Source: Fidelibacterota bacterium
Lineage (GTDB): Bacteria; Fidelibacterota; Marinisomatia; SCGC-AAA003-L08; JACNLC01
Direction: 5' to 3'
Length of the DNA stretch: 64,000 bases
Assembly: GCA_024277615.1 (NCBI GenBank)
Contig: JAJRUW010000068.1
Coordinates: forward strand, 6,047 to 70,046
Under the pieces are notes generated by a model. That model saw only the letters and a program-made list of their open reading frames with translations. It was not told the origin of the DNA and searched no databases. Shown in pieces: positions 2,592 through 54,087 of the stretch. A program made the translations under genes and the position numbers. How positions within the stretch are numbered: position 1 is the stretch's first letter; each line of letters begins with the position of its first letter.

Positions 2592-5562
<2,971 letters not shown>

Positions 5563-5629
5563 ATAAACTCCAAACGATAGATTTGCTTCATTAAATTACC
5601 TCAAATATATTGTTATCACGAAATATCAA

Positions 5630-8452
5630 TCAGAAAATTTCTTCAGATTCCAGCAGTACTTTATCAAAGCGTTGATAGGGAATGGGTTCAACCGGGAACG
5701 AGTCTAATATCACCGACCCGTAGCGCGCATTAAGCAGCCGCGGATCAGTAAAAATACAGACTCCCGTATCCTCCATACTGCGGATGAGCCGTCCGAAACC
5801 CTGTTTCATCCTGACGGTTGCATCCGGCACCGAATAATCCATGAAAGCATTCTTTCCCTCACGCTGAAAATTTTGAATTTTTGCAATTACCATAGGTTCC
5901 CTGGGGTTGGCGAAAGGAATTTTAACGATCATCAATGCTTCAACTTTATCGCCCGGCAGATCTACGCCTTCCCAGAAGCTGGCTGTGCCGATGAGTATTG
6001 CTCTGGAATGGGCCAGATAACCCCTGATTAATGCCAGACGATTGCTCCCCGGGACCTGAACAAATAGCCGGCGTTCACTCATATGCAGGGATGCCTGCAG
6101 AAAATCCTTCAGAGCCCTGGTTTGCTGATAGGAAGTGCATAAAACCAGCATCCGTTTGTGAAATTTGAGAGTGAAACGATCGATCTGCGCGGCCACTGCT
6201 TTCAGATAGTCCTGGCTGTTGATATTCAGGTCTGAAGAAAAAGTAAACAGTTTCATCTGGTCCTGATAGAGAAAGGGGGAATAATAGATTTCTTCACTGA
6301 TTTCCCGTTCCGGGGGGAGGTGATGCAAGCCGATAGTGTCGGACAGATATTTAAAACTGTAATCAACGGTTAGAGTGGCAGAGCAGACAAGACCGCCGGC
6401 CTCTCTGGAAAAAATACCCTCGGCAATGAATTGGCTCACGTCCCGCGGCGCACAGCTGAAGTTTGCATAAGTACGATTCCCATAGGTCGTAAAGGAAGAC
6501 CAGACTATATCTTCTCTGTCAACAGCCAGTACCCGGTCAAAAACGGTAAGTGTGGTCTGTAGTGAATTTGCAAGGATTTTCAGTTCCTGCACATACTCAC
6601 TTTTTTTCCCTGCAGGGATATTCCGGGCTGTACTGATAAATTCGCCCACCAAAGTATTGAAACCTTTCAGGGCTGTTGAAAGTTCTTCCGGAGGCGGTTG
6701 AATTCCCGCAAATTCATTTCCAGGATCATCAATGACATGGGTCACCTCGTATCTTGGGTTTTGTACAGTGGTTGCTCCCTTCTTTTGCTTGCTATAGGCA
6801 GTAAAAAAGGATCGCAGGGCAGTCTGCAGCTGTGTGACTTTATCCGACAATTCATTCTACAGGGAAGTCAATCTTTCGCTCTCTGAAAGCAGTGCTGTTA
6901 GTTTATCTCCAATCACGACCTGCTGGTCTGAAAAAAATGCGAAAATATCATCAAAAGAACGTTCGCCTACCCGGTTGATCAATTGATCACGGGCCGCCCT
7001 TTCGAGATTATGTCCTTCATCAATAACATAGCAGAATGTGGGTGGGAGGGTCATATTCCCCTGTATTGTATCACTCATAAGCAAAGCGTGGTTTACCACT
7101 ATGATATCGGCCTGCCCCAATGCATCCCTGACTTTACGCAGGAAACAACCCTCCTGCCGGTCACAGCGGGAACTGGTACAATATCCCGACTCACTGCGAA
7201 TTTTCGACCATAACCTGCCCGAACGTTGCAGCATAAAACCATTGCATTCACTCACATCTCCGGATTTTGTAAATTCCACCCAAACCAAGATTGGCAGGAT
7301 GTCCTCGCAGTCCTTTTCAGAGAGTACCCTGGCGCTGTTTTGAAGCAGTCTGTTCAGGCGTGTTTTACATAGATAATTATGGCGCCCTTTCAAAAGAATG
7401 GCATAAGTGTCAATATCTACAGCCGTGGATAAGGCGGGCAGGTCTTTATAGAATAATTGATCCTGCAGATTCTTTGTGTAAGTCGAAACGACCAAAGGAA
7501 TATCCGTATGTTTGCGATTCAGGAGTCCGGCCGAAAGATAGGCCAGGGATTTCCCCAGTCCCGTTCCGGCTTCGGCAAGATGAATTTGTCCGTTATTGAA
7601 AGTATTGTATGCATCGACGGCAAATTCGGTCTGGGCTTTACGGGATTCATAATCTTTCCAGTTTGACGGAATGACACCTCCTTCGCCAAACCATTCGTTT
7701 ATGGATTTTTCAACATTTACATTGGCCGAACCTGATTCATGACGGTAATAGAAATTTTTAATTTTTTTCTCGATATTTGAAGGAACCAATCCGTTGACTT
7801 CCTTCGCCCGTACAGCCAGGTTGATGATGTCTTTTAGCAGGGCCAGCCCGTGCAGGCGTGTATGCTTGACGGCGTCATAGAGTTTTTGAATGATATGAAG
7901 CGGATAGGAGGCAGCCTCGTGGATCAGATCCACGAAGATCAATCCGGTATTCTTCGTATCTGCCCCAGCCCGGTGTGCGCCTGCAGAAGAATAACCGAAA
8001 TACTCACTAATACCGCCAAGGTTGAATTCGTGATGAAAAAACAGGAAAGTTCTTGCCAGGATCAGCGTATCGTAGATTTCGTTCTGGATACTTGTAAATT
8101 GATTATTTTCCAAATCCTGCTCCAGAAATGAAAGGTCAAATTTGATCATGTGCCCCACAAGCGGCAACGAACCTATGAAATCCATCAGAGGCTGCAATAC
8201 TTCATCGATGGTAGGAGACGATTTCACCATTTCATCCGTGATTCCCGTCAATTCGATAATTTCAGTAGGGATCTTTTGTTGAGGGTTGACGAGGGTAGTG
8301 AACTCCTCAACAGGTAAACCCTGCTCAAAGCGATAAGCGGATATTTCTGTTATTGCATCTTTACCAGGAGTCAAACCGGTGGTCTCGAGGTCCAGGGCAA
8401 TGAAGCGGTTCAGTTGCAGGGCGTCCAGTAGTTCGGAGATTTTCAAGTTCAA
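5630..8452 (-). pseudogene. dinG: DinG-family protein (DnaQ-like 3'-5' exonuclease domain + superfamily-2 helicase) interrupted by one in-frame TAG at 6857..6859
   Basis: The N-terminal ORF 6857..8452 has the exonuclease motif FIALDLETTGL, Walker A AEAGTGLGKSLAY and box II VIDEGHNLE. ORF 5630..6850 has the helicase C-terminal domain (GTASFWEGVDLPG, KQGFGRLIR). Both ORFs are in the same reading frame, separated by TAG-AAT-GAA. Confidence 0.85.
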
Positions 8453-42166: not shown

Positions 42167-43831
42167 TTATTCCAGTGTTATCCGCAACATTTCTTCAACC
42201 GACGTTTTCCCCGAGATGACCAGCTCCAAACTGGATTCGCGGAGAGTTCGCATTCCCTTTTCCACAGCCGTATGGTGAATAGTGCGAGCCGTGGCATTCC
42301 TGGTAACCATACCGGTTATTTCTTCGTCGGGTACGAGCAATTCATATACTCCTGTCCTGCCGGTGTAACCTGAGTTTTTACAATGCATGCACCCCCGGGC
42401 TTCATAAATGGAACTGCCCTGTTCGGCACTGATCCCGAGGCTTTCGAGGAGTTCCGGCGGAGCTGTGATTCTCTCTTTACAACTCGGACACAGCAGTCTT
42501 ATCAAGCGCTGGGCAAGTATTGCTCTCACGGTGGAGCTGACCAGGTAGGCATCCATCCCCATATTTGACAAGCGCGTAAAACATGATGCGGCATCGTTCG
42601 TATGGATTGTGCTAAAGACCAGATGCCCTGTAAGTGCAGCTCTGATAGCCAGTTCGGCAGTCTCCAGATCTCTGATTTCTCCAACCATAATGATATCCGG
42701 ATCCTGACGGAGCATGGAGCGTAGTGCGGCTGAAAATGTCATACCGGCTTTTGTATTTACCTGTGCCTGTGTGATGTTGTCCAGACGGTATTCAATAGGG
42801 TCCTCTACGGTCATTATATTGACTTCCACAGTATTGACCACGGCCAGGGTTGCATAAAGGGTTGTCGTCTTACCGGAACCGGTAGGGCCTGACACTATTA
42901 TCAATCCGTTCGGTGAATGAATTGATCTTTCCCACGTATGAAATGTATCCTTGCTGAATCCCATTTTTTCCAGTGATATTCTGGATTTCTTTTGGTCCAG
43001 AATTCGCATTACTATTTTTTCTCCGAGGGGAGTCGGGAAAGTTGATGAGCGGATATCCACATCCGAGCGCTGCTCCTGAAAATGAAACCTGCCGTCCTGG
43101 GGTTTCCGGGATTCGGCAATATCCATATTTGATAGTATTTTAATTCGGGAGATCAAGGGCGCTAAGGCTGAACGCGGGAATGTATAATATTGCTGCAGAA
43201 CACCGTCAACCCGGAAGCGGATCCGGACATCTTTCTCTCTGGGGTCGATATGAATATCACTGGCCCCGATTTTCACGGCTTCAAGAATCAGCATATTCGC
43301 TGATTCGATAATTTCCGTATCTTCGGCAATTTCTTTGGATACAACCCTTACCCTTGAGCGGGAATCCTCCTGTTCACTTCCCCCATCAACATATTGTTCG
43401 ACCCCGTAGTAGAGATCGATGACTTTCTTAATGCTCATCTCAGGAGCCAGTACGAGATTTATTTCCATTACAGTTTCAACGTTCAGCTCATCAATTATCT
43501 CAACGTTGATCGGGTCGGAACAGGCTACCGTCAATTTGTTGCCGATATGAAATAGCGGTATAATATTCAGCCTTTTTGCAACATCCTCTTTAACGATATC
43601 TATGACACCGTTTTCGATTTCATAAGTCAGGGGATCCAATGTGGGCAGTTTCAACTGGTCACTCACGGCCTCGATGATATCGTCTTCCGTTACAAAACCC
43701 AGTTCAATAAGGGCCAGGCCCAGGTATATGTCATGCGTCTGTTTATATTGGAGGGCTTCTTCCAGCTGCTGCATATCAATCTTGCCTTCGTCCAGCATGA
43801 TCTGCCCAAGTAATTTTTTTTCCTGTGCCAT
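42167..43831 (-). CDS. pilB: Type IV pilus assembly ATPase PilB/GspE/MshE family
   Basis: 554 aa with a T2SSE_N-like N-terminus, Walker A GPTGSGKTTT, an Asp box, Walker B IMVGEIRD, a His box and a tetracysteine motif CPSC...CMHC. Confidence 0.92.
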   Translation of the reverse strand: MAQEKKLLGQIMLDEGKIDMQQLEEALQYKQTHDIYLGLALIELGFVTEDDIIEAVSDQLKLPTLDPLTYEIENGVIDIVKEDVAKRLNIIPLFHIGNKLTVACSDPINVEIIDELNVETVMEINLVLAPEMSIKKVIDLYYGVEQYVDGGSEQEDSRSRVRVVSKEIAEDTEIIESANMLILEAVKIGASDIHIDPREKDVRIRFRVDGVLQQYYTFPRSALAPLISRIKILSNMDIAESRKPQDGRFHFQEQRSDVDIRSSTFPTPLGEKIVMRILDQKKSRISLEKMGFSKDTFHTWERSIHSPNGLIIVSGPTGSGKTTTLYATLAVVNTVEVNIMTVEDPIEYRLDNITQAQVNTKAGMTFSAALRSMLRQDPDIIMVGEIRDLETAELAIRAALTGHLVFSTIHTNDAASCFTRLSNMGMDAYLVSSTVRAILAQRLIRLLCPSCKERITAPPELLESLGISAEQGSSIYEARGCMHCKNSGYTGRTGVYELLVPDEEITGMVTRNATARTIHHTAVEKGMRTLRESSLELVISGKTSVEEMLRITLE

Positions 43832-43836
43832 GGTTA

Positions 43837-44607
43837 CTATCCTTTAATGATCAGAGTATGTACGTACCAGTTGATAATTTCCGGACCATATAAAATGCTG
43901 ATCAATGCTCCTAAACTAAGATAAGGTCCGAATGGCAATCGTCTGCCCAAACCTGATTTGCCGCTGACCAGCAATATCAAAATGACGATTGCCGAAGAGA
44001 AAAACGCCAGTGCAACGACTAATATACCTTCCTGCCACCCAAAAAAGAGACCCAGCAAAAATGCAAATTTCACATCCCCCAATCCCATCGCATCCTGTTT
44101 CAGAATGAGTTTTCCCAGAATTCTGATAATCAGAAAACCGAGTCCAAGTCCCAAAAAGCCCCAGAAATGCTGTGGAATCCCCGCATAACCACTACGGTAA
44201 ACAAAATACAGGGCCGGGACTAAAGCAATTACTAAAAAGGAGTCCGGTATAATTTGGACATCAAAATCGATAAAGGTCAAACCAATCAGGAGGCAGAGAA
44301 AGATGCCATAAAATATAAAATCAATGGGGTCACTAACACGTAAATAGGTGACAAATAAAATTGCTGCCGTCAGAAGCTCCACTAAAGGATATCGAATTGA
44401 TATCTTTTGGGCACAATTTGAGCATTTACCTCGCAGAAAAATATAGCTGAGTACGGGGATATTCTCGTACCACAGGATCATGTGTCCGCAATTTGTGCAG
44501 CTTGAACGGGGTGAGACAATGGATTTTCCCAGGGGAATCCGGTAAATGCAGACATTGAGAAAACTCCCAATTACCAGGCCCAGTATGATCACGAGTGCTG
44601 ATATCAT
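43837..44607 (-). CDS. pilD: Prepilin peptidase (A24 family)
   Basis: It has the N-terminal zinc-finger cysteines CTNCGH...CSNCAQ, multiple TM segments and the catalytic region MGLGDVKF. Confidence 0.9.
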   Translation of the reverse strand: MISALVIILGLVIGSFLNVCIYRIPLGKSIVSPRSSCTNCGHMILWYENIPVLSYIFLRGKCSNCAQKISIRYPLVELLTAAILFVTYLRVSDPIDFIFYGIFLCLLIGLTFIDFDVQIIPDSFLVIALVPALYFVYRSGYAGIPQHFWGFLGLGLGFLIIRILGKLILKQDAMGLGDVKFAFLLGLFFGWQEGILVVALAFFSSAIVILILLVSGKSGLGRRLPFGPYLSLGALISILYGPEIINWYVHTLIIKG

Positions 44608-44993
44608 TTTCGAGGCTCCGTAATTTGTTGTATGGCTTCCAATAATGTCTCCGGTACAATAGGTTTTGAGATTTGCAGATCGCCGCGAATTTCTCTCAGC
44701 AGGTTCTCATCGAGGTCTGCACCCTGATCTGTTATCAGGATTATCGGAATATGCTGGTATTGCTGGTCAAACTTCAACAGCCGGCAGACATGCAGACCGT
44801 CAATTTCCGGCAGCATAACGGCCAGAAGTATGAGATCGGGGTTTTCCGATCGGGCAAGTTTTAATCCGGTAAGTCCATCATCTGCTGAAATAACCCTCAT
44901 TTCGATCTGTTCGAGGAATGCGGTGATGAAATCGACGAAAGACAACTCTTCATCAATGATCAATATCTTTTTTCTGTCATCGTGCTGGGCCAT
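44604..44993 (-). CDS. Aspartate-less receiver domain protein (pseudo-receiver)
   Basis: It has a receiver fold with ILIIDEE, ILITDQ (Thr) and ISKP (Lys). The phospho-acceptor position reads DLILLAVMLPEIDG, with Ala58 where Asp is expected. Confidence 0.75.
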   Translation of the reverse strand: MAQHDDRKKILIIDEELSFVDFITAFLEQIEMRVISADDGLTGLKLARSENPDLILLAVMLPEIDGLHVCRLLKFDQQYQHIPIILITDQGADLDENLLREIRGDLQISKPIVPETLLEAIQQITEPRK

Positions 44994-46106
44994 TTATACT
45001 CCTGTTTTAAGCTGAATGGATAAACTGGCTTCCTGTTCTTCTTCGGTACTGATCCGCAAGCGTAAATCGGATTGATTGTCGGCATACCAAACGGCGGTTT
45101 CCCTGGTTATCCTGCCTTCGCGGTAAAGATTGAACAGACTTTGGTCGAAAGACTGCATGCCCTCATTATTCGAGGATTCGAGGGTTGTTTTCAGCATGTG
45201 CGTGTCCCCGCGCTGGATGAGGTCTTTAACGCGGGCCGAAGGGAACATGATTTCATGAGCGGCAATGTTTTTACCGTCAATGCCCGGCACCAGCCGCTGG
45301 GCAATAACGGCTTCCAGATTGTTGCTGATCTGCGACCGGATCATGACCTGGAGATAAGGATCGAAGAAGTTGACGATCCGTTCGATGGTTTGAGAGGTGT
45401 TGACGGCATGCAGCGTGCTGATGACCAAATGTCCCGTTTCAGAAAAATTCAGAGCTGCCGACATGGTCTCGATATCGCGTATTTCGCCGATAGAGATCAT
45501 TGAGGGGGATTCCCTCAGAGCGCTTTTTAGGGCCTGAGTGTAGTTTTTAGCATCGTGTCCTATCTCCCGCTGGTTGACGATAGACTTTTTATGCGAGTGC
45601 AGGAATTCGATGGGGTCCTCCAGCGTCAGAATATGTCCGGGCAGAGTGGCGTTACGATGGTCTATCATGGCTGCGATGGTTGTTGACTTCCCCGAGCCGG
45701 CCTGGCCCACGACCAGGATGAGCCCACGCTCCTTCAGAGTGAGGTTTTTCAGCTGTACCGGTAATGATAATTCGTCTATACTTTTAATCCGGTTCAAAAT
45801 TTGATGGATAACAAAGGCATCCGAGCCCCTCTGCTGAAAATAATTGATGCGAAAACGACCCACACCGGGAAAACTGTAAATAAAATCCAGATCATGTTCC
45901 CGGCGGAAATCCTCCTGCTGCTGTTTGGTCAACAGACTGGTGCGGAGGGCATCCAGCATTTCAAAAGTAACCTTCTTCTCTTCGATCACATGAATCTCAC
46001 TGCCTATTTTTAGAGTCGGATAGGCGCCGATACTGATGAATAAATCAGATGCTTTGGATTCTGCCATGATTTTCAACAGATCTTCAACTTTGTAAATATC
46101 AACCAT
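44994..46106 (-). CDS. PilT-family retraction ATPase paralog (PilU-like)
   Basis: It has Walker A GQAGSGKST, TLEDPIEF, GEIRD and TGHLVISTLH. It lacks the AxxNLIRE motif (it has VKDLIQRGD). Confidence 0.85.
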   Translation of the reverse strand: MVDIYKVEDLLKIMAESKASDLFISIGAYPTLKIGSEIHVIEEKKVTFEMLDALRTSLLTKQQQEDFRREHDLDFIYSFPGVGRFRINYFQQRGSDAFVIHQILNRIKSIDELSLPVQLKNLTLKERGLILVVGQAGSGKSTTIAAMIDHRNATLPGHILTLEDPIEFLHSHKKSIVNQREIGHDAKNYTQALKSALRESPSMISIGEIRDIETMSAALNFSETGHLVISTLHAVNTSQTIERIVNFFDPYLQVMIRSQISNNLEAVIAQRLVPGIDGKNIAAHEIMFPSARVKDLIQRGDTHMLKTTLESSNNEGMQSFDQSLFNLYREGRITRETAVWYADNQSDLRLRISTEEEQEASLSIQLKTGV

Positions 46107-47155
46107 TATTCCGCCCCGGCCAGAGCCAGACTCAATTCACTGTTCACATCCAGTAAAGCATCTTTAGAAACGATACCTGTACGAACCAGTTTGTCTATCG
46201 ACTGCTCAAGAGTGATCATTCCCATTCTTGTATTTGTTTGCAATATCGAGGGCAACTGGTAGGATTTTTTCTCCCGGATGAGGTTGGCTACGGCAGGTAT
46301 CCCCAGCATTACTTCAAATGCCGCCACCCTGCCCCCGTTGCTTTTTTTCAGCAGAATTTGCGAAATCACACCGATGAGTGTTTCACTGATCATCAGACGG
46401 ATCTGATTCTGCTGACTGGGAGGAAACTGATCGATAATGCGGTCAATGGTTTTGGTCGAGTTCACCGTATGCAGTGTCCCAAAAACCAGGTGGCCGGTTT
46501 CCGCAGCGGATATTGCCAGTGCAGTCGTCTCCAGATCTCGCATCTCACCGACAACGATCACATCAGGGTCTTCCCGCAGCGAACTGCGCAAAGCCTTTGA
46601 AAAGGAGTGTGTATCAATCCCTACTTCCCGATGATTGATCAGCGCAAGTTTGCTTTCATGAATATATTCCACGGGATCTTCAATCAGGATGATATGTTTT
46701 TTCTGTCGCCGATTGATATAGTCGATGATAGTGTTTAAGGTTGTCGATTTACCACTGCCGGTCGGTCCGGTGACCAGGATCAGACCTTTGGGACTCAGAG
46801 CAAGCTTTTTCAGAATGGGTGGTAATCTCAATTCCTCAAAAGTAAAACATTTTTCGGAGATTGCCCGCATCACCACCGTATCACCGAAATAGCCCTTAAA
46901 GACATTGATCCGAAAGCGGCCTATTCCCTTAAAATCACGTGAGAAATCGAGTTCCCATTCCTCTTCATATCGTTTTTTTTGATCCTCATTCATGATGTCA
47001 TAGGACAACAGATGCACATCTTCGGCGGAAAGACGAGGGAGATCGGTTCGCTGAACCTCACCATCCACTCTGACAATGGGTTCATGATTCGGACTCAGAT
47101 GCAGGTCAGAGGCTCCGATTTTACGAATGAAGTTCAGTAATTCATAAATTTCCAT
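46106..47155 (-). CDS. pilT: Twitching motility ATPase PilT
   Basis: It has GASDLHL, Walker A GPTGSGKST, IEDPVEY, GEMRD, TGHLVFGTLH and the PilT signature AVANLIREKK. Confidence 0.92.
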   Translation of the reverse strand: MEIYELLNFIRKIGASDLHLSPNHEPIVRVDGEVQRTDLPRLSAEDVHLLSYDIMNEDQKKRYEEEWELDFSRDFKGIGRFRINVFKGYFGDTVVMRAISEKCFTFEELRLPPILKKLALSPKGLILVTGPTGSGKSTTLNTIIDYINRRQKKHIILIEDPVEYIHESKLALINHREVGIDTHSFSKALRSSLREDPDVIVVGEMRDLETTALAISAAETGHLVFGTLHTVNSTKTIDRIIDQFPPSQQNQIRLMISETLIGVISQILLKKSNGGRVAAFEVMLGIPAVANLIREKKSYQLPSILQTNTRMGMITLEQSIDKLVRTGIVSKDALLDVNSELSLALAGAE

Positions 47156-47170
47156 ACTGAGCCCTGACTG

Positions 47171-48976
47171 CTAATCCAGTTTTACAATATTCGGTGTGAC
47201 AAAGAGCAATAGCTCACGCTGCTCGGCAATCGAAGATTTATGGGTAAACAATTTTTTCAAAAGCGGGATATCACCGAGAACAGGAACCTTTTTAGTATTG
47301 TCAATGACCTGATCAAAAATCAATCCGCCGATTAACAGTGTCTCACCGTCTTTAACCATGACCTGGTTATTCAGTGATCGGGTTGAGATGATGGGTCTGT
47401 CGTTGTTGGGACCGGTCATGCCGACGAGGGCTTCGACGATGGCATTCAATTTGATGGAAATATACTCATCCTGATTAATTCTGGGTGTTACATTCAGCGT
47501 GATATTAATATCTTCCTGTTCAAAGGAGTACTGGGTTTCAGATAGTATAGTACTGCTGTTCTGTGGCACAAGGATCGGGAAGGTTGTCCCGACATTCATG
47601 GTTGCAGTGGTATTATTTAAAGTCGTGGTTTGCGGCTCCTGGATCAGGCGTGTATCTCCGTCAGAGGAGAGCAGATCCATGATACCCTTAAAGACCGGCA
47701 GACTAAGCGTAGCGATTTTCAAATTTGTGAGCTTTCCAAGGTCCACTATAGAACTCAGGTCAGACTGTTCGGCGGAGGTCTTGGCAGGGGCACTCAGTTC
47801 GGCTCTCATAGTCCAGTCGATGCCCAGCTTCTCATCCAGCGTCAACTTTGTCTCTATGAACTTAACGGCAATATTGATCTGTTCTATCCGCCTGTCGAGC
47901 CTTGAGATGACGGATTCGATTTGATCGAAATTTGCATAAATGTCCGTTACAATTATATGGTCCAGACTCGTCTGCTGCTGATTCCCGTAACCGCCGAGAC
48001 CACCCAGTCCACCCTGAGCGCTCCCGCCATAACGGCCTGAAGTTGAGCCCGTTGTGTACCCTGACAGGCTGGCCTGGGTGCCGGTTTGGCCATAACCGCC
48101 TGTTCCCTGACCGGTCAGTCCGCCACTGCCATAGGGTGTCACACTGCCGATGCCGCCAGCTCCGTATGAAGAACCGTACAGACCGAGTCCACCCTGGGGA
48201 ATGGGTGTGAATACCTGTACCTTACCTTTTTTTGAGAGTACATTTTCAAGTGCCGTAGCCAGCGAAATTGCATCTGCATACTCCAGTTTATAGACTCTCG
48301 TAGTCAGTTCGCCCGCCATATCGTCGGCAGTGGGTTTGATGACGACAATATTACCCTGCACGAACCACGAATATCCGTTGACTTTTAAGATAGCATCCAG
48401 TGCATCCCCCAGATTGACATCCGTAAGGGTCACGGTTACTTTGCCCTCGATATCGGCACCTGCGATAATATTGAGATTGTTCTGTTCAGCCAGGAGCCGG
48501 AGGATATCCAGTAAAGGAGCATCCTTGAAATTAAGCGAGCCGGTTTGACTGAATTGAAAGGCTTCTTCCAGAGGATTGTCAGCAGGAGCTTCAGACTCCG
48601 GAGACCGCCAGGCGACGATAACGCGGTTACCGCTGTTGTGAATTGTGTAATCGGGCAACGATGTAAAACGGAGCATTACGATCAGATTATTATGCCCTGT
48701 ATTGGCAAACATCTCACTGGCATCAATTCTGTACAGCGGAGGCAGGTCCAACTGTTTGCTGAAATGGTCAATGTCGAATTTTTTAGTGGAGAAAGTCAAC
48801 TTCAACTGTGGTGGTGATGAAAATTCATCGGCATTGATCAAATCTTCACCCAGGGTAATTGACACAACTGAACTGTCCCCGTTCAAGTAGGTTGTAACCC
48901 ACTCCTGATGTTGGGAAAAGAGACACAAAGGAAGTATCAATAAGATTATTGGAAGTATTTTTTTTCTGTAATTCAT
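47171..48976 (-). CDS. pilQ: Type IV pilus secretin (PilQ/MshL-like) with Gly/Tyr/Ser-rich insertion
   Basis: It has a signal peptide, an AMIN-like N-terminal domain and an N0-like region LNFKDAPLLDILRLLAEQ. The secretin C-terminus is VPVLGDIPLLKKLF...RELLLFVTPNIV. An 80-aa low-complexity insert sits at aa ~257-337. Confidence 0.9.
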   Translation of the reverse strand: MNYRKKILPIILLILPLCLFSQHQEWVTTYLNGDSSVVSITLGEDLINADEFSSPPQLKLTFSTKKFDIDHFSKQLDLPPLYRIDASEMFANTGHNNLIVMLRFTSLPDYTIHNSGNRVIVAWRSPESEAPADNPLEEAFQFSQTGSLNFKDAPLLDILRLLAEQNNLNIIAGADIEGKVTVTLTDVNLGDALDAILKVNGYSWFVQGNIVVIKPTADDMAGELTTRVYKLEYADAISLATALENVLSKKGKVQVFTPIPQGGLGLYGSSYGAGGIGSVTPYGSGGLTGQGTGGYGQTGTQASLSGYTTGSTSGRYGGSAQGGLGGLGGYGNQQQTSLDHIIVTDIYANFDQIESVISRLDRRIEQINIAVKFIETKLTLDEKLGIDWTMRAELSAPAKTSAEQSDLSSIVDLGKLTNLKIATLSLPVFKGIMDLLSSDGDTRLIQEPQTTTLNNTTATMNVGTTFPILVPQNSSTILSETQYSFEQEDINITLNVTPRINQDEYISIKLNAIVEALVGMTGPNNDRPIISTRSLNNQVMVKDGETLLIGGLIFDQVIDNTKKVPVLGDIPLLKKLFTHKSSIAEQRELLLFVTPNIVKLD

Positions 48977-48980
48977 GGTA

Positions 48981-49463
48981 TTATTGTGTTAGTATTAATC
49001 GGATTGATTGATCCCCCTTGCTCAATATTACATACCGGAATGCAATCTTATCGAGACGGTAGCCACTGATCACGTCGCCTTCCCGCAAAATATTTGAATT
49101 GATCACAGCCGTGCAGCTGTTGCTGATGCAGGAGATTCCGGTGAGGTCCAGAGTCGATGCTTTTGTTGCTTTGTCAAACAGCAGACCGTCGCCTTCCTGC
49201 AGATCAGCCGAAACATAATAAAATGGGTCTTGCGACCAGTCTTCCGGCCAGCCGGATTTTAACAATTTCTCAATTCGGGACATATCGGGAATGCTTACAG
49301 CCGGAGCGACGGGAGCGGTAACGGTTGCAGCAATGGCAGCTGTCTCCGATTGCACCGCCGTTCCGGTTTTACCTCCCAGATAGCCTGAATCCCAAAGGTA
49401 ATAGACAATCACTGCCAGTAAAACTGCTGCTAAAATGTACTGACGTTTATTTTCACTGTTCAT
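48981..49463 (-). CDS. PilP/MshK-like pilus assembly protein (single N-terminal TM)
   Basis: 160 aa with an N-terminal TM (YILAAVLLAVIVYYLW). Its position between the PilO-like gene and the secretin matches PilP/MshK. I recognised no diagnostic motif. Confidence 0.4.
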   Translation of the reverse strand: MNSENKRQYILAAVLLAVIVYYLWDSGYLGGKTGTAVQSETAAIAATVTAPVAPAVSIPDMSRIEKLLKSGWPEDWSQDPFYYVSADLQEGDGLLFDKATKASTLDLTGISCISNSCTAVINSNILREGDVISGYRLDKIAFRYVILSKGDQSIRLILTQ

Positions 49464-50041
49464 ATTTTACGGTCCCCTGCAACGTACCAATAAGTATAGA
49501 GCAGCATTTCTCCGGTCAGGGCTCCGCCCGGTTCGAGTTCGGATTCGATATCAAGTGAGCCGATATTGATCAATGCGTCTGAATTGACGAATTCTTCAAT
49601 CATGGCGGTGATAGAAAAGAAATCTCCCATAAACTGGAATTGAATCGGGATTCTCTCAATATGTTTTTTAGTAGTGACCAATTGATATTTGATTGCGGGA
49701 AAGGAATCCCTCAGGTCCGGTGAAAAGGAAATAATGCGGATATTTTGTTTTTTTGCCACACTTCGGATTTTTTCCAGTACATCCACAAAATTATTATGGC
49801 TCGATAAAGAATATTGCAGCGTGTCAAAATCGGCCTCACTTTTCGTGAAATGAGCTTTGATCAACGGGTAATACTCCACCGACAGGTTCAGGGTTTCGAT
49901 CTGTTTCTCAACCCTGGAAAGTTCTTCCTGTTTTTGGATCAGGTTGCCGCCGTCGATATAAATTACTTTAACGGCCCACCACAGGAATGCGACAACGAGG
50001 ACTGCCAGGAGTATGATATAAGTACGTTTGTACTTTTTCAT
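49460..50041 (-). CDS. PilO/MshJ-like pilus assembly protein
   Basis: 193 aa with an N-terminal TM (TYIILLAVLVVAFLWWAV), a coiled-coil segment (QKQEELSRVEKQIETL) and then an alpha/beta domain. Its position follows the PilM-PilN fusion. Confidence 0.5.
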   Translation of the reverse strand: MKKYKRTYIILLAVLVVAFLWWAVKVIYIDGGNLIQKQEELSRVEKQIETLNLSVEYYPLIKAHFTKSEADFDTLQYSLSSHNNFVDVLEKIRSVAKKQNIRIISFSPDLRDSFPAIKYQLVTTKKHIERIPIQFQFMGDFFSITAMIEEFVNSDALINIGSLDIESELEPGGALTGEMLLYTYWYVAGDRKI

Positions 50042-50042
50042 A

Positions 50043-53000
50043 TCAGATCCCCAGCTTCAGATTAAACAAAAACTTATTGGATGCCTTCTCGGCAATATCT
50101 TCCATGTCAATGGAAACCGACGAAAAATAAGGCAGTTGTTCGAGCTTAAGCCTGAAATTCGTGAGTTGTATATGCGCCAGGGATACATCACTGGTTACAA
50201 AACCGTTCAGCAGGAGGACGTCATCAATTGAATTAACGGTTTTTACACCATTATCATCGACGGTTTCACGGGTCTCTTTAGTGAATGAAAGCGATGTCAG
50301 CTTGATATCTTTGGGGATTATGTTAGACAACAGTTTGAGAAGATTTCTCTGATAAACGGTATAGACCCTGTCATTTTCCAACAGACGATAATAGTCCTCA
50401 ATGAGCTTTGTATCTTTCTGCAGAGTCAGCATCTCGTTTTTACGCTTCGTTAACTGTTCGGCGTGAATCCGTTTTTCGTCCAGCTTCACGGAGATCGAAT
50501 CATATCTCGTACTCATCCAGAATCCGGAGACGGCAAAAAGCGGGAGTAAAACTACAGCCATGGCCGTCATGAGTTTGCTCCTGAAAATATAGCGGTATTC
50601 GCTGCGGTTTTTTTCGGGTATGATGTTGAGGGGTTCGGTATTTTTTGCCAACAGGGCAAAGTTTGTCACAAAGTTCGGGAGTTGGCTTTCTGCAATTACC
50701 TTTCCGCCTTTGAACCTGTATTTCCCTGTGCGCAGGGGATTGAAATATCCTGCTTTCAGGTTCAGGCTTTGATTGATGGTCTGAACAAGATTGGGAAAAG
50801 TCGAGCCGACCCCGTCAAACAACATGACCTCCCAGTTCAAGTCCGGATTCTGTTTTTTGAAATAGTTTAGAGAACGGTTTAATTCGCTGGTTATGCGCTC
50901 AACCACCGGTCGCAGGAATATTGAGATCTTATAGAGATCGATGTGTGAACCTTCCGAAATGCCCGTGCGGTCTTTTGGGAATCCATATTTTTTTAATAGC
51001 TGTCGGGCCATGGGAAGATCAATCTGAATGGATTTGTCATCAGCGGTCACTTTTTTCATTACGGCTTTATAAAGATCATCTGCGCCGATGGCAATTTCCC
51101 TGGAAAAAGCCAGCTTGTGAGAGTTGATCACCGTAACCACGGTGCGCATTTCACCCATCCGAACCAGCACGTAACAACCTCGATTCAGATCCGGATAATT
51201 TTGCATGAATGCTTTCCACATTATCACCGGAATGGTGGAATAATAACGTAATTTCAGCTTGTGTATTTCAAAAGTAGCAATGGACTTTTCGATGACACTT
51301 CTATCGCCGGCACTAATCACGATATCATCTTTAATACTCTTATCCGGAGATTTGATCTGTTCCCAGTTGATCACCGCATGATCGGAACTGAATGGCAGGT
51401 TCTTCTTGGCATGCCAGGCTACGAGGTCAGACAGATCACCGGATTTTAAGCGGGGAGTTTGAAAAATGTGGGTCTTTGTGGGATGCTTCGCCGAAAGAAA
51501 AGCTGAATAAGAAATACTCCGGACAGAATCGTCAATATCATTTTCAAGCACGTGGTCGATGAGTTTTTCCACTGAGTCCAGGGTCAGCTTTCCCTCGTGA
51601 TAGGGGAGTGTGTACTCCCTGAAATCCCGGATTTCAGTACCTTTCCCATCCTCTTTTATCTGGAGCAGCCAGAGTTGATTGTTATCCTGGTGCAGACTAA
51701 TTTTATATGTAGCTTCATTAAACTTATTCTTTAAAGATGTGAGAAAATGGCCGCCCTTCGGCTTTATCTCAAGCTCAGGGATAACTTTAAACAACTCTTC
51801 ATCGAAGCCCGGAGGTTTTACCACAACCGGTGCGACTTCTCCCTTTTTCAAAGCTGTATTTTTCAACAGGGCATCCGGTTTACCAGGGGAACTTGCAGGC
51901 TTTGCGGATGGCTCCTCTATGGGGCTTAAAATGTTGCTCCCCTTTTTTAGTTTAGCCGCATCTTCGGTACTCCCCTTCTCGATACGGGAAAGACGCATTT
52001 TGCCGGAAGAGGTTGCAATAGAAACAGTGGGTGTCAGTCCGGCTTTTTCCTTGCGGACTTCCCGGGGTTTCTTTTCTGCCGGCGTATCTGTTGCAGCGGG
52101 TTTGGACTTCACCGCTTCAGGCGACTTGGTAATTCCTTTCCCGGCGGCAGGTTTTGCAGCTTTCGGTTCCTTCGATCGCTCAGGTGCTGCGGGCTCGTCG
52201 GGTTTACTCCCGAGCTTATCTTTCAACAATTCCTCTAATCGTGCAGTTTCCCCGGCTGCGCCAAGAGTTTCGGAAGCTGCCTTTCCGTCCGCCCCGGCAG
52301 TTTTAAGGCGTGGGGCCTCTTTTTTACCGCTGGATTGGGATTCTTCCTTTATTTTCGGGGTCTCTGCCTGCGGTTGGTCTTTTTCTTTGCGTTTTGGCGG
52401 AGTTTTTTCTACCGCATCCGGGCTTTTAGTCACTTTAGCAGGACTGGCAATTTCCGGTGTCTTCCCGGGTTGTACGGAAGGCGCTTCCGCTGGTTTATCA
52501 ACGCTTCTGACGGCAGATCTTTGATCAATATTATTTAAGATCTCTTCAATTCTGGCCAGTTCCCTGGTGACGGCATTTTTGGTAGAAGCCTTCTTTGGAA
52601 CGGCCGGCGTGCCCTGTGTGGAGGTGGTTTCAACTGTGTGAGCGCTCCGTTGGTTGGCCGCCGCACCGGCGGCTTTCTTCTTGGCTGCAATCAGTTCATC
52701 CAGTTTGGAGACGGGGGCAGGAGTCGTTTTTTTGGGAGCGGATAATTCTGATTTACCGGATATATCCGATTTACGTAAATCTGCACTTGTGGTCTTTTTC
52801 TGTGAGTCTGTGTTTTCGGATTTTTCCGATTTTTGGCGGGTCAACCTTAGTTTTTCGAGCAACCCCGTTTTTTCCGACGTGTTCCCCGACTTTAATCCGG
52901 GTTCTGCTGCGGGCTTTGGCGACTTTTTCTCTCCTCTCAATGTCCCGGGAATTTTTATTTCTGTTTTCTTGGATTTGGTAACCGGCAGTACTTTGGGCTG

Positions 53001-53240
53001 GATAACAGATTCGTGATCATGCTCTGCCCTTTCCTGTTTTTTCCCGGTAGTATCGGATTTCTGTTCGGGCTTTGGGGTTTCCTTGCCTTCTGAGTTATTT
53101 TTAGATTCGTCATCGGGGGCTTGAGAAGGTTTTTCCGGTACTGCTCTGGTGCGCAGTTCTTTCTCCGCATCCTGTGCCCTCAACAGGTCTAAAAGCCTGT
53201 TGGTGGCAATTTCACCTCGTTTAGATGTCGGATTAGACAT
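50043..53240 (-). CDS. PilM-PilN fusion (MshI-like) with ~450-aa Lys/Pro/Ala/Glu/Ser/Thr-rich disordered N-terminal region
   Basis: I chose the start at ATG 53240 (MSNPTSKRGE), which overlaps the exeA-like stop. The ORF-track aa ~530-900 look like an actin-like PilM fold (ISLHQDNNQLWLLQ..., LFDGVGSTFPNLVQ). A TM follows (LMTAMAVVLLPLFAVSGFWM), then a PilN-like periplasmic domain. Confidence 0.7.
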   Translation of the reverse strand: MSNPTSKRGEIATNRLLDLLRAQDAEKELRTRAVPEKPSQAPDDESKNNSEGKETPKPEQKSDTTGKKQERAEHDHESVIQPKVLPVTKSKKTEIKIPGTLRGEKKSPKPAAEPGLKSGNTSEKTGLLEKLRLTRQKSEKSENTDSQKKTTSADLRKSDISGKSELSAPKKTTPAPVSKLDELIAAKKKAAGAAANQRSAHTVETTSTQGTPAVPKKASTKNAVTRELARIEEILNNIDQRSAVRSVDKPAEAPSVQPGKTPEIASPAKVTKSPDAVEKTPPKRKEKDQPQAETPKIKEESQSSGKKEAPRLKTAGADGKAASETLGAAGETARLEELLKDKLGSKPDEPAAPERSKEPKAAKPAAGKGITKSPEAVKSKPAATDTPAEKKPREVRKEKAGLTPTVSIATSSGKMRLSRIEKGSTEDAAKLKKGSNILSPIEEPSAKPASSPGKPDALLKNTALKKGEVAPVVVKPPGFDEELFKVIPELEIKPKGGHFLTSLKNKFNEATYKISLHQDNNQLWLLQIKEDGKGTEIRDFREYTLPYHEGKLTLDSVEKLIDHVLENDIDDSVRSISYSAFLSAKHPTKTHIFQTPRLKSGDLSDLVAWHAKKNLPFSSDHAVINWEQIKSPDKSIKDDIVISAGDRSVIEKSIATFEIHKLKLRYYSTIPVIMWKAFMQNYPDLNRGCYVLVRMGEMRTVVTVINSHKLAFSREIAIGADDLYKAVMKKVTADDKSIQIDLPMARQLLKKYGFPKDRTGISEGSHIDLYKISIFLRPVVERITSELNRSLNYFKKQNPDLNWEVMLFDGVGSTFPNLVQTINQSLNLKAGYFNPLRTGKYRFKGGKVIAESQLPNFVTNFALLAKNTEPLNIIPEKNRSEYRYIFRSKLMTAMAVVLLPLFAVSGFWMSTRYDSISVKLDEKRIHAEQLTKRKNEMLTLQKDTKLIEDYYRLLENDRVYTVYQRNLLKLLSNIIPKDIKLTSLSFTKETRETVDDNGVKTVNSIDDVLLLNGFVTSDVSLAHIQLTNFRLKLEQLPYFSSVSIDMEDIAEKASNKFLFNLKLGI

Positions 53241-54087
53241 TAAAAGGGTCCTCAGACTGCATTTTTTTAAAGACCAGCGTACTATCGACAATTTCCTTAC
53301 CGTTCAGGAGCATATCCATGATGAGATAATGACATAAATTGACAATTTTGCGCGGATACCCTTTCGTATGTTCGTGAATCATTTTTTTTGCTTCATCGGT
53401 GAAGAGACGTTCCCCCGCAGGCAGGCCGGCTACTTTCAGGCGGTGGTCGATAAAAGCAATAGTACTGCTCTCGTTGAGAGGTTTGATCACATAACCAAAA
53501 GCGATTCTGTCCTTAAAATTTTCATGCTGATTTACCAGTTCCTGAAATTCCGGTTGGGCAAAAATGACCACCTGGATCAGTTTTCGATCGTTGGTTTCAA
53601 AATTCAGTAATGTACGGATGACTTCTATCTGATCGGCTCCCATTTTCTGACCTTCATCGATTAATAGCACAATCTCTTTATTCGAGTGGATGGCCGAATC
53701 CAGCAGGAAATGTTCGACCTGGTTCATAGTGTCCGTTTTGACATCGGCTTTATTTTTAATTATGAAAAGTCGTTTCAAAAAGAGCAGAAACTCCATTCCA
53801 TCCCTCCAGGTCGGATTCAGGATCAGGAAAAAATCATAGTTTTTCCCGAATTCCACAAAACGGTCCAGGAGCAGGCGTGAAAGCGTAGTCTTTCCGGTCC
53901 CGACATCACCGATGACAACATGCAGTCCGCGATTGAGTCTGAGTGACATTTCGAGACGATTCAGGCATTCACCGTGATTTTTAGTTTGATAGAAAAACTC
54001 CGGATCAGGAGCCATGGCAAATGGTTCACGAACCAGTCCCAGCAGTTCATAATAACCGGCCTGAGAATTTTTTAGGGATGTACTCAA
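53233..54087 (-). CDS. ExeA/MshM-like AAA ATPase
   Basis: It has YYELLGLVREPFAMAPDPEFFY, Walker A GDVGTGKTT, Walker B LLIDEGQ and FAQPEF. 284 aa. Confidence 0.85.
   Translation of the reverse strand: MSTSLKNSQAGYYELLGLVREPFAMAPDPEFFYQTKNHGECLNRLEMSLRLNRGLHVVIGDVGTGKTTLSRLLLDRFVEFGKNYDFFLILNPTWRDGMEFLLFLKRLFIIKNKADVKTDTMNQVEHFLLDSAIHSNKEIVLLIDEGQKMGADQIEVIRTLLNFETNDRKLIQVVIFAQPEFQELVNQHENFKDRIAFGYVIKPLNESSTIAFIDHRLKVAGLPAGERLFTDEAKKMIHEHTKGYPRKIVNLCHYLIMDMLLNGKEIVDSTLVFKKMQSEDPFNV

Follow-up and report, generated by a model that had tools for sequence, protein, structure and literature searches.

The minus-strand gene at positions 50043 to 53240 of the stretch analyzed here, 64,000 nucleotides (nt) of contig JAJRUW010000068.1 from a Fidelibacterota bacterium (assembly GCA_024277615.1; hereafter the window), encodes a type IV pilus alignment protein that unites PilM and PilN in a single chain (PilMN) and begins with a long cytoplasmic tail, predicted to be disordered and tipped by a conserved short linear motif. 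In every locus checked, the motif occurs together with an adjoining upstream gene for a soluble AAA_22 ATPase, and it is tempting to propose that the tail is a tether whose terminal motif docks this co-translated ATPase. We put this proposal forward tentatively, with a chance somewhat short of even: while the tether itself is shown, its docking partner is one that we infer from genomic context.

The tail is a translated part of the PilM–PilN protein

The open reading frame (ORF) at 50043 to 53291 on the minus strand is open for 1082 codons. Its first ATG, at 53240, is the likely start and yields a protein of 1065 residues plus the stop codon. This ATG lies in ATGTCTAA and overlaps the TAA stop of the upstream AAA_22 gene (53233 to 54087) by 8 nt, an overlap already described in an earlier note on this DNA, which had drawn attention to positions 51807 to 53174 (residues 23 to 478 of the protein); the start region, with the AAA_22 stop and the PilMN ATG, reads TTTAATGTCTAATCC. 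The overlapping start is kept in every locus examined, and the overlap of stop and start codons suggests coupled translation of AAA_22 and PilMN.

That note had itself raised the possibility that translation starts at a downstream methionine just before the PilM fold, in which case the long N-terminal region would be an annotation artefact, that is, an open frame arising from A-rich low-complexity DNA. Such DNA does yield spurious frames here. Three antisense ORFs on the plus strand cover the tail (51679 to 52524, 52595 to 52981, and 52654 to 53016, with 281, 128, and 120 residues, rich in S, G, F, and L), and these most likely stem from the low complexity and A-richness of the coding strand (AT skew down to −0.55) and are not genes; M415 is, moreover, the sole internal methionine of the tail. 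However, roughly 60 to 70 loci retain both the N-terminal motif and the overlap of the start with the AAA_22 stop; about 100 distinct homologues keep the frame open over 30 to 548 codons even though the sequence itself has turned over completely; and purifying selection acts on the protein sequence of the tail, the ratio of nonsynonymous to synonymous substitution rates (dN/dS; Nei–Gojobori) being 0.1 to 0.17 in comparison with the orthologue from locus L004. An artefact is thus effectively refuted already, and we assign it next to no probability. The tail is a translated N-terminal part of PilMN, and it is cytoplasmic because PilM is cytoplasmic and neither a signal peptide nor an earlier transmembrane segment precedes it. 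An internal promoter for a short isoform was not apparent either, since promoter-like matches occur at chance level. In the comparison with L004, dN/dS was 0.095 for the conserved islands described below, 0.165 for the linkers, in which dS is saturated, and 0.043 for the core. As the island boundaries used for these values were drawn after the alignment had been seen, the permutation test on the motifs chosen in the earlier note (see below) is the cleaner evidence.

Composition, predicted disorder, and domain layout

Residues 1 to 480 are made up of 15.4% K, 11.9% A, 10.0% E, 9.6% S, 9.6% P, and 8.1% T, and between residues ~32 and 468 these six amino acids account for 65% of all positions. 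With 97 K and R against 68 D and E, residues 1 to 480 have a net charge of +29, and the hydrophobic fraction per block of 50 residues is 0.06 to 0.20 in the tail compared with 0.3 to 0.46 in the folded part. An AlphaFold2 model based on an alignment of 29 sequences has a predicted local distance difference test score (pLDDT) below 50 across most of residues 32 to 468 (51837 to 53147), the disordered net-basic linker; the only helices in the tail are at residues 8 to 31 (pLDDT ~60) and 229 to 235, and a confident fold begins at about residue 470. Searching Pfam at an E value of ≤10 gave only one 12-bit chance match for the tail, and no PDB sequence matched it at an E value of ≤1. The earlier description of a fold-less, low-complexity segment of about 450 residues ahead of PilM is thereby borne out, and the match to a known domain that might have explained the segment otherwise did not turn up. 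Lacking a fold and a domain match and being of low complexity, the tail is predicted to belong to the disordered regions with short linear motifs, an operational class rather than a protein family, and the short conserved islands within its fast-evolving, indel-rich flanks agree with this. A candidate origin of the motifs from tandem DNA repeats was rejected, as the DNA under the tail holds just two trivial arrays of about two copies each (22 and 36 nt).

The linker is followed by a P-x-E-F-D-x-S-L-F element (GFDEELFKVIPEL, residues 478 to 490; 51771 to 51809) that is conserved in most family members and with which, in the model, the structured part begins, as a helix packing against the PilM fold (helix at 481 to 486; block pLDDT of 77 to 78 for residues 471 to 490). 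The PilM cytoplasmic domain (residues ~498 to 870; 50631 to 51749) contains the sole Pfam family recognized in PilMN, PilM_2 (PF11104; residues 591 to 841, 43 bits against a cutoff of 27), while the narrower PilM model TIGR01175 stays below its cutoff (55.9 against 133). A profile of the core matches the PilM structures 3jc8, 2ych, and 5eou, and the modeled core (pLDDT of 80 to 95) retrieves the same three structures with Foldseek (E values of 1e-20 to 5e-17, TM-scores of 0.76 to 0.81), with FtsA as the next-best match, pointing to the actin-like (FtsA/MreB-type), two-lobed PilM fold. At the PilM/PilN junction lies the sequence LNIIP (residues 871 to 875; 50616 to 50630), read as the counterpart of the PilN peptide INLLP; the alignment shows P875 to be invariant and N872 nearly so. 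As in PilN, this INLLP-type peptide precedes a single transmembrane helix (residues 890 to 910, LMTAMAVVLLPLFAVSGFWMS; 50511 to 50573), a hydrophobic stretch that is part of a modeled helix at 876 to 956. The remainder (residues 911 to 1065; 50046 to 50510) is predicted to be a PilN-like periplasmic part in which a long coiled coil leads into a ferredoxin-like strand-strand-helix-strand-strand domain (pLDDT of 66 to 80). Pfam's PilN model (PF05137) matches PilMN weakly (13.4 bits, E value of 0.08, cutoff of 22.8), and distant relatives do match it. The topology that had been anticipated, from a cytoplasmic tail and PilM through one membrane span to PilN, agrees with the modeled core and the position of the transmembrane helix.

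A conserved motif tips the tail

The N-terminal peptide MSNPTSKRGEIATNRLLDLLRAQDAEKELRTRA carries the short linear motif EIATNRLLDLLRAQ at residues 10 to 23 (53172 to 53213), within the predicted helix at residues 8 to 31 (53148 to 53219); the pLDDT of this helix is 52 to 60 in two AlphaFold2 models with tails of 469 and 99 residues. To collect homologues, the PilMN core was used alone as the query. This retrieved 28 close relatives, the complete or near-complete ones having 633 to 994 residues and the named ones all coming from metagenome-assembled genomes (MAGs) of Marinimicrobia, Neomarinimicrobiota, Fidelibacterota, or the “FCB group”; a profile of the core as the query added no further proteins to this set. 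An exhaustive profile search of 1.84 billion representatives yielded 7188 relatives of the core. The motif, with the consensus (E/K)(L/I)ATNRLL(D/E)(L/I)LR(A/S)Q, is found 8 to 13 residues after the initial methionine in every homologue with a complete N terminus, and positions A12, R15, L16, L17, L20, and R21 are at least 90% conserved among 29 homologues. In the collected set it is present in 73 proteins as 56 distinct variants. These include distant relatives scoring 150 to 290 bits, in which, among the best 150 of the 7188, the variants ATNKLLELLR, ATNRLLNLLR, and ATNRLLEIIR occur; the named carriers in this range are divergent Marinimicrobia and a cluster labeled as Calditrichota.

Two loci depart from the usual arrangement. 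In L085 (contig Ga0082039_1000276, divergent Marinimicrobia; positions 2822 to 7048), the AAA_22 gene (2822 to 3670) is followed by an overlapping ORF of 66 residues (3642 to 3842) that encodes nothing but the motif SATKRLLEILRKE with a short tail, its sequence being MSEHHPKDCNSATKRLLEILRKE..., and the full PilMN with its own motif, NATNKLLNILR, begins only at 4181, 340 nt after this ORF. The small ORF looks like a duplicated or split 5' end and is effectively a natural stand-alone motif peptide. In L030 (4582 to 7656), AAA_22 ends at 5433 and the ORF for the PilMN core starts at 5938 without a motif, the tail probably being interrupted by a frameshift or an assembly error.

The motif co-occurs with an upstream AAA_22 ATPase

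The gene upstream of PilMN (53233 to 54087, minus strand) encodes a soluble AAA+ ATPase of 284 residues resembling ExeA, GspA, and MshM. It matches AAA_22 (PF13401) with 65.4 bits (cutoff of 27) and TIGR03015 with 166 bits, below the cutoff of 324.5, and a Walker A motif (GDVGTGKTT) and a Walker B motif (LLIDEGQ) can be read from its sequence. The protein ends after the ATPase module, with no hydrophobic or transmembrane segment, no periplasmic domain, and no match to PF01471.

Genome contigs and look-ups of proteins supplied 28 motif-bearing loci with upstream sequence, among them three distant ones (L032 to L034), and in each of the 28 the gene that stops where PilMN starts is an AAA_22 homologue. 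We also scanned metagenomes with a degenerate back-translation of the motif, which is independent of the PilM sequence. Of its 47 matches, 4 were chance hits in tiny ORFs and the other 43 were PilMN N termini or ORFs cut by a contig end, so that the motif, such chance hits aside, was found in no protein context other than the PilMN N terminus. In 42 of these 43 loci the start of PilMN coincides with the end of an AAA_22 gene, and the 43rd has no upstream DNA. In L085, too, it is the motif, in the small ORF described above, that follows AAA_22 with an overlap. Conversely, three distinct relatives without the motif also lack the upstream AAA_22 gene: L031/L084 and L035, which carry the different motif nLDLDFLLxxK, and L083, which is tail-less (568 residues). 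The association between motif and AAA_22 is strong, although it is not proof of contact.

Other genes also adjoin AAA_22 or PilMN at some loci. In L031/L084, a gene for an ABC-type ATPase lies 132 nt upstream of PilMN. In L033 (4922 to 5984) and L034 (4736 to 5783), a MerR-family gene (77 to 80 residues) overlaps the start of AAA_22, giving the string MerR–AAA_22–PilMN; the window has no such gene.

The tail varies in length, charge, and tip across the family

All distinct motif-bearing relatives carry an N-terminal extension, and the 104 distinct motif-bearing tails span 30 to 548 residues, with a median of 173. According to the earlier note, the tail is lacking from the PilM and MshI proteins known to its author. 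This is true of canonical PilM and MshI, but within the present PilMN family the tail is universal. Its description as basic likewise fits the window and not the family, in which the median net charge is −0.12 per residue, with 9 of the 104 tails net positive and 95 acidic or neutral. A net basic charge is seen in five of the six longest tails, namely, those of the window, of L006, and of a group comprising L017, L049, L075, and P0036. The tail of the window is therefore long and unusually basic, yet neither unique nor the longest. What is conserved in the linker is its composition rather than its sequence.

Further variation was seen among individual tails. P0021 (808 residues) holds, at about residues 35 to 150, three near-perfect tandem copies of an acidic unit of ~37 residues, DTELVKDDKGGETEVIEQEPASEISENKDVEDETP, from which it follows that tails can grow by recent internal duplication. 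A group spanning P0059 to P0123 (labeled Caldithrix, Calditrichota, and KSB1; loci L031, L084, and L035) has equally long acidic tails with the N-terminal motif n(L/I)DLDFLLxxK, which these tails often repeat internally as DLSFLL. Finally, four proteins (P0119, P0130, P0139, and P0143; 787 to 895 residues) begin with an ArsR-like winged helix-turn-helix (Pfam HTH_20 and HTH_5) instead of a linear motif, so that a domain of the DNA-binding type would here be joined to a pilus alignment protein.

Internal leucine-rich islands are conserved within a subclade

The six short Leu-rich motifs quoted in the earlier note all exist, at residues 14 to 23, 126 to 136, 179 to 189, 227 to 238, 334 to 343, and 415 to 423. 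Patterns of the type ΦΦxxΦ or ΦxxΦΦ (Φ being Leu, Ile, or Met) occur 6 times, compared with 0.74 expected, and only 6 of 20,000 shuffles reach this number. We compared the tail with that of P0002, a protein from an “FCB group bacterium” MAG that is 72% identical overall; no homologue had been seen by the reader who picked the motifs. The five internal motifs are identical at 48 of 53 positions, the rest of the tail at 159 of 383 (42%), and none of 20,000 random placements of the motifs matches this difference. Islands are 87 to 91% identical and their flanks 36 to 42%; the linker segments, at 36% and with indels, contrast with 89% in the core. The motifs are hence genuine islands of conservation. 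In L006, whose core is 75% identical, a three-way alignment recovers the same islands (GLLEKLxL, SKLDExIAAKKK, IxEILNxIDQR, ETAxLEELLxDKL, TSSGxMRLSxIEKG, and SPGKPDALLKNTxLKKGExAPxVVKP), separated by linkers that are almost unalignable.

Individually, all on the minus strand, these are motif 2, GLLEKLRLTRQ (residues 126 to 136; 52833 to 52865; 9 of 11 positions identical in P0002 and kept in L006); motif 3, KLDELIAAKKK (residues 179 to 189; 52674 to 52706; 11 of 11 in P0002), also present in L006, which carries an extra upstream copy, SRLIQIIAAKK; motif 4, ELARIEEILNNIDQR (residues 227 to 241; 52518 to 52562; 10 of 12 in P0002 and kept in L006), which contains the modeled helix at 229 to 235; motif 5, ETARLEELLKDKL (residues 331 to 343; 52212 to 52250; 9 of 10 in P0002 and kept in L006); and motif 6, GLTPTVSIATSSGKMRLSRIEKG (residues 401 to 423; 51972 to 52040), whose MRLSRIEKG is identical at 9 of 9 positions in P0002 and whose RLSxI recurs in P0003 and P0021. 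To these we add a motif 7 that the earlier note had missed, SPGKPDALLKNTALKKGEVAPVVVKP (residues 451 to 476; 51813 to 51890), which is almost invariant among the window, L004, and L006 and takes the position of an “xLLxEIQ” motif in other family members.

The islands are not, as had been thought, six similar motifs. A position-specific scoring matrix (PSSM) of 16 columns, built from 56 distinct N-terminal sites, scores the internal motifs no higher than shuffled sequences, and we rejected the idea that they are copies of the terminal motif; rather, they are distinct. Their amphipathic helical character was confirmed only in part. Four motifs have hydrophobic moments of 0.48 to 0.54 (the top 5 to 10% of windows) and the other two are weak, but the number of high-moment windows is not above that of shuffled sequences (181 of 1000 shuffles reach it), and AlphaFold2 places helices at two motifs only. 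The internal islands differ between subclades and are local, subclade-specific additions, while the terminal motif and the PxEFDxSLF element are family-wide.

Proposed role of the tail and alternatives

In the mechanism that we envisage, every PilMN subunit in the machine's base would extend a flexible tentacle, the terminal motif of which would capture a soluble partner, most likely the ExeA/GspA/MshM-like AAA+ ATPase from the overlapping upstream gene, and keep it at the site where PilMN, PilO, a GspB-like protein, and the secretin assemble. The internal islands might provide further contacts, weaker or of another kind, for which the PilB and PilT motors are possible partners, and the long net-basic tail of the window would be a lineage-specific elaboration. 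The tail is a candidate anchor because the AAA_22 ATPase has none of its own and the GspB-like protein exposes only ~9 residues to the cytoplasm, and because the tail is the sole large element of the operon that is cytoplasmic, membrane-tethered, and lineage specific. The earlier idea of a tether for ATPases fits these observations, with the identity of the partner resting on our inference.

Several points weigh against this mechanism. What links the motif to the ATPase is genomic co-occurrence, and this could reflect inherited synteny within one clade: the motif-bearing loci are often close relatives, some contigs belong to both sets of loci, and the comparison covers only three distinct motif-less loci. 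The dissimilarity between the internal and terminal motifs leaves multivalent binding of one partner unsupported, hydrophobic moments do not exceed those of shuffles, and a simple tether does not explain linkers of up to ~550 residues.

Alternatively, the terminal motif and some of the islands might recruit PilB (with its MshEN domain), the PilT paralogues, or the response regulator to the PilM ring instead of AAA_22, so that the tail would raise the local concentration of motors or control the switch between extension and retraction. PilM and GspL are known to contact motor ATPases, and the GspE–GspL structure 4pht is among the fold matches; the genes for PilB, the two PilT proteins, and the response regulator are syntenic in all family loci, and internal motifs that differ from the terminal one leave room for several partners. 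Yet a T2SSE-family (PilT-like) ATPase is also encoded in L084, a locus of the Calditrichota type without the ATNRLL motif, meaning that the presence of a motor does not track the motif, whereas that of AAA_22 does, and we regard motor recruitment as rather unlikely, if worth keeping in mind. Less probable still is that the N-terminal helix binds the PilM domain itself, whether in cis, imitating the PilN peptide with an auto-inhibitory effect, or in trans, joining neighboring subunits of the PilM ring, with the linker only setting the reach. PilM does have a well-known groove for the N-terminal peptide of PilN (2ych and 5eou), and the LLxLL core of the motif loosely recalls INLLP. The fusion, however, already has its own LNIIP at the junction, the pLDDT of the helix in both models is below that usual for a confidently docked helix, and the strict link to AAA_22 would be left unexplained. 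We consider it slightly more doubtful again that the tail acts mainly through its bulk properties, as a charged entropic brush or as an electrostatic binder of anionic membrane, nucleic acid, or polyphosphate, the islands being incidental helices. Consistent with such a role are the charge and lysine content of the window's tail, the tendency of the longest tails (>460 residues) to be basic in at least two groups, and the conservation of linker composition over linker sequence. But the predominance of acidic or neutral tails implies that polyanion binding, one of the functions suggested in the earlier note, is not ancestral, and that suggestion finds no support in the family; islands that are ~90% conserved amid surroundings at 42%, and a terminal motif that is near-invariant across phyla, point instead to specific recognition.

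Taking the docking of AAA_22 by the terminal motif one step further, one may speculate, though we think it more likely wrong than right by a wide measure, that PilMN proteins of the FCB-group phyla encountered here (Marinimicrobia, Calditrichota, and KSB1) evolved interchangeable disordered tentacles with different tips: ATNRLLDLLR, always together with a soluble GspA/MshM-like AAA+ protein; DLDFLL; or a helix-turn-helix domain in place of a motif. The pilus base would then be a programmable recruitment hub, and the long, basic, multi-motif tail of the window a multivalent scaffold that forms a dense polymer brush or condensate under the machine. If true, the way in which the long-puzzling MshM/GspA-type ATPases connect with a type IV pilus or secretin assembly platform would for the first time become accessible in mechanistic terms.

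Gene neighborhood

Downstream on the minus strand, the gene order is AAA_22, PilMN, PilO, a GspB-like protein, a secretin, two PilT/PilU paralogues, and a single-domain response regulator, followed by a prepilin peptidase, PilB with MshEN, a sigma-54 activator, PilC, and a probable pilin, named so for its prepilin N-methylation motif. PilO (49460 to 50041, minus strand) matches PF04350 with 36.8 bits. The GspB-like protein (48981 to 49463, minus strand) is a small bitopic protein of 160 residues with weak matches to T2SSB (E value of 5e-4) and CdsD_C (E value of 9e-5), and its orthologue in L034 has a PF16537 match on record. The PilQ/GspD-like secretin (47171 to 48976, minus strand) matches the Pfam Secretin domain with 146 bits and also STN; at residues ~255 to 335, between the N-terminal domains and the secretin domain, it has an insert of ~80 residues in which Gly, Ser, Tyr, and Thr are abundant (…GGLGLYGSSYGAGGIGSVTPYGSGGLTGQGTGGYGQTG…GGLGGLGGYGNQQQ). 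The PilT paralogues are at 46106 to 47155 and 44994 to 46106, the response regulator is at 44604 to 44993, and PilB is at 42167 to 43831.

The thresholds for assignment to the mannose-sensitive hemagglutinin (MSHA) system are not reached in this cluster: the secretin scores 115.7 against a cutoff of 250.2 with TIGR02519 (MshL), and the GspD and PilQ models score higher; PilMN has no match to the MshI model. PilB is nearest to the type IV-A PilB model (588 bits, with a cutoff of 675.65). AAA_22 and the 160-residue bitopic protein can be regarded as a GspA/GspB-like pair in split form within the type IV pilus operon, and by its gene content the cluster is an ordinary type IVa pilus cluster to which this pair has been added. 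The pilus system itself is ordinary, with no sign of a new class of machine.

Significance and comparison with known systems

On their cytoplasmic side, type IV pilus and type II secretion machines are regarded as assemblies of folded domains, and little is understood of how accessory ATPases of the GspA/ExeA/MshM type are coupled to them. With a conserved motif that sits on a disordered PilM tail and is genetically tied to a GspA-type ATPase, there is now a concrete hypothesis for the coupling of these orphan ATPases. Marinimicrobia (SAR406), an abundant group, cannot be cultured, and interaction predictions derived from sequence are one of the few routes into their cell biology. Motif-tipped disordered tethers are well known in eukaryotes and in FtsZ, and in the present case they recur as a modular element of an envelope machine of bacteria. 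In the full-text literature searched, outside subscription journals, we found no description of N-terminal tails on PilM, of this motif, of the PilMN architecture, or of a link between PilM and GspA/MshM.

Among known systems, PilM and PilN of type IVa pili (Thermus thermophilus 2ych, Pseudomonas aeruginosa 5eou, and Myxococcus xanthus 3jc8) share with PilMN the actin-like fold, the INLLP-type peptide, the single transmembrane segment, and, by prediction, the periplasmic PilN-like domain, as well as a gene context of PilO, secretin, PilT, PilB, and PilC. In contrast to them, the two proteins are fused here in one chain that gains a disordered tail of 30 to 548 residues with a terminal motif; the matched canonical PilM structures, of 333 to 357 residues, align to the core only. 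The best NCBIfam match of the core is NF045709 (Amuc_1101, a PilM-like protein of Akkermansia), which covers residues 594 to 992 and so extends past the PilM domain, but with 70.6 bits against a cutoff of 650 PilMN is not a member. As is predicted for PilMN, GspL (4pht) combines an actin-like domain, a transmembrane segment, and a periplasmic ferredoxin-like domain in a single chain, and its cytoplasmic part serves to keep an ATPase at the membrane; its fold match is weak, however (E value of 2e-7, TM-scores of 0.55 to 0.57), and GspL binds GspE through a folded domain and not through a disordered tail.

The pairs GspA/ExeA–GspB/ExeB, and MshM of the MSHA system, resemble the arrangement found here in that the operon combines an AAA_22 ATPase with a small bitopic protein that has a GspB-like periplasmic region and is encoded next to the secretin. 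Typical GspA has a transmembrane segment of its own as its membrane anchor and functions jointly with GspB in the assembly of the secretin (PMC9239104). Compared with the typical GspA, the present ATPase lacks the C-terminal transmembrane and peptidoglycan-binding parts and resembles the short GspA forms mentioned in the same paper. The GspB-like protein, unlike GspB, has almost no cytoplasmic part, and the proposed link to the membrane is instead the PilMN tail. In its logic, a variable disordered linker tipped by a short helix-forming peptide, the tail recalls the C-terminal linker of FtsZ and the conserved peptide with which FtsZ docks to FtsA (4a2a), with the differences that the tail is N-terminal, sits on the actin-like protein itself, bears no sequence relationship to FtsZ, and has a partner proposed from gene context. 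What is known, then, is the PilM–PilN core and the pilus cluster that surrounds it, and what is new is a PilMN protein with a motif-tipped disordered tail.

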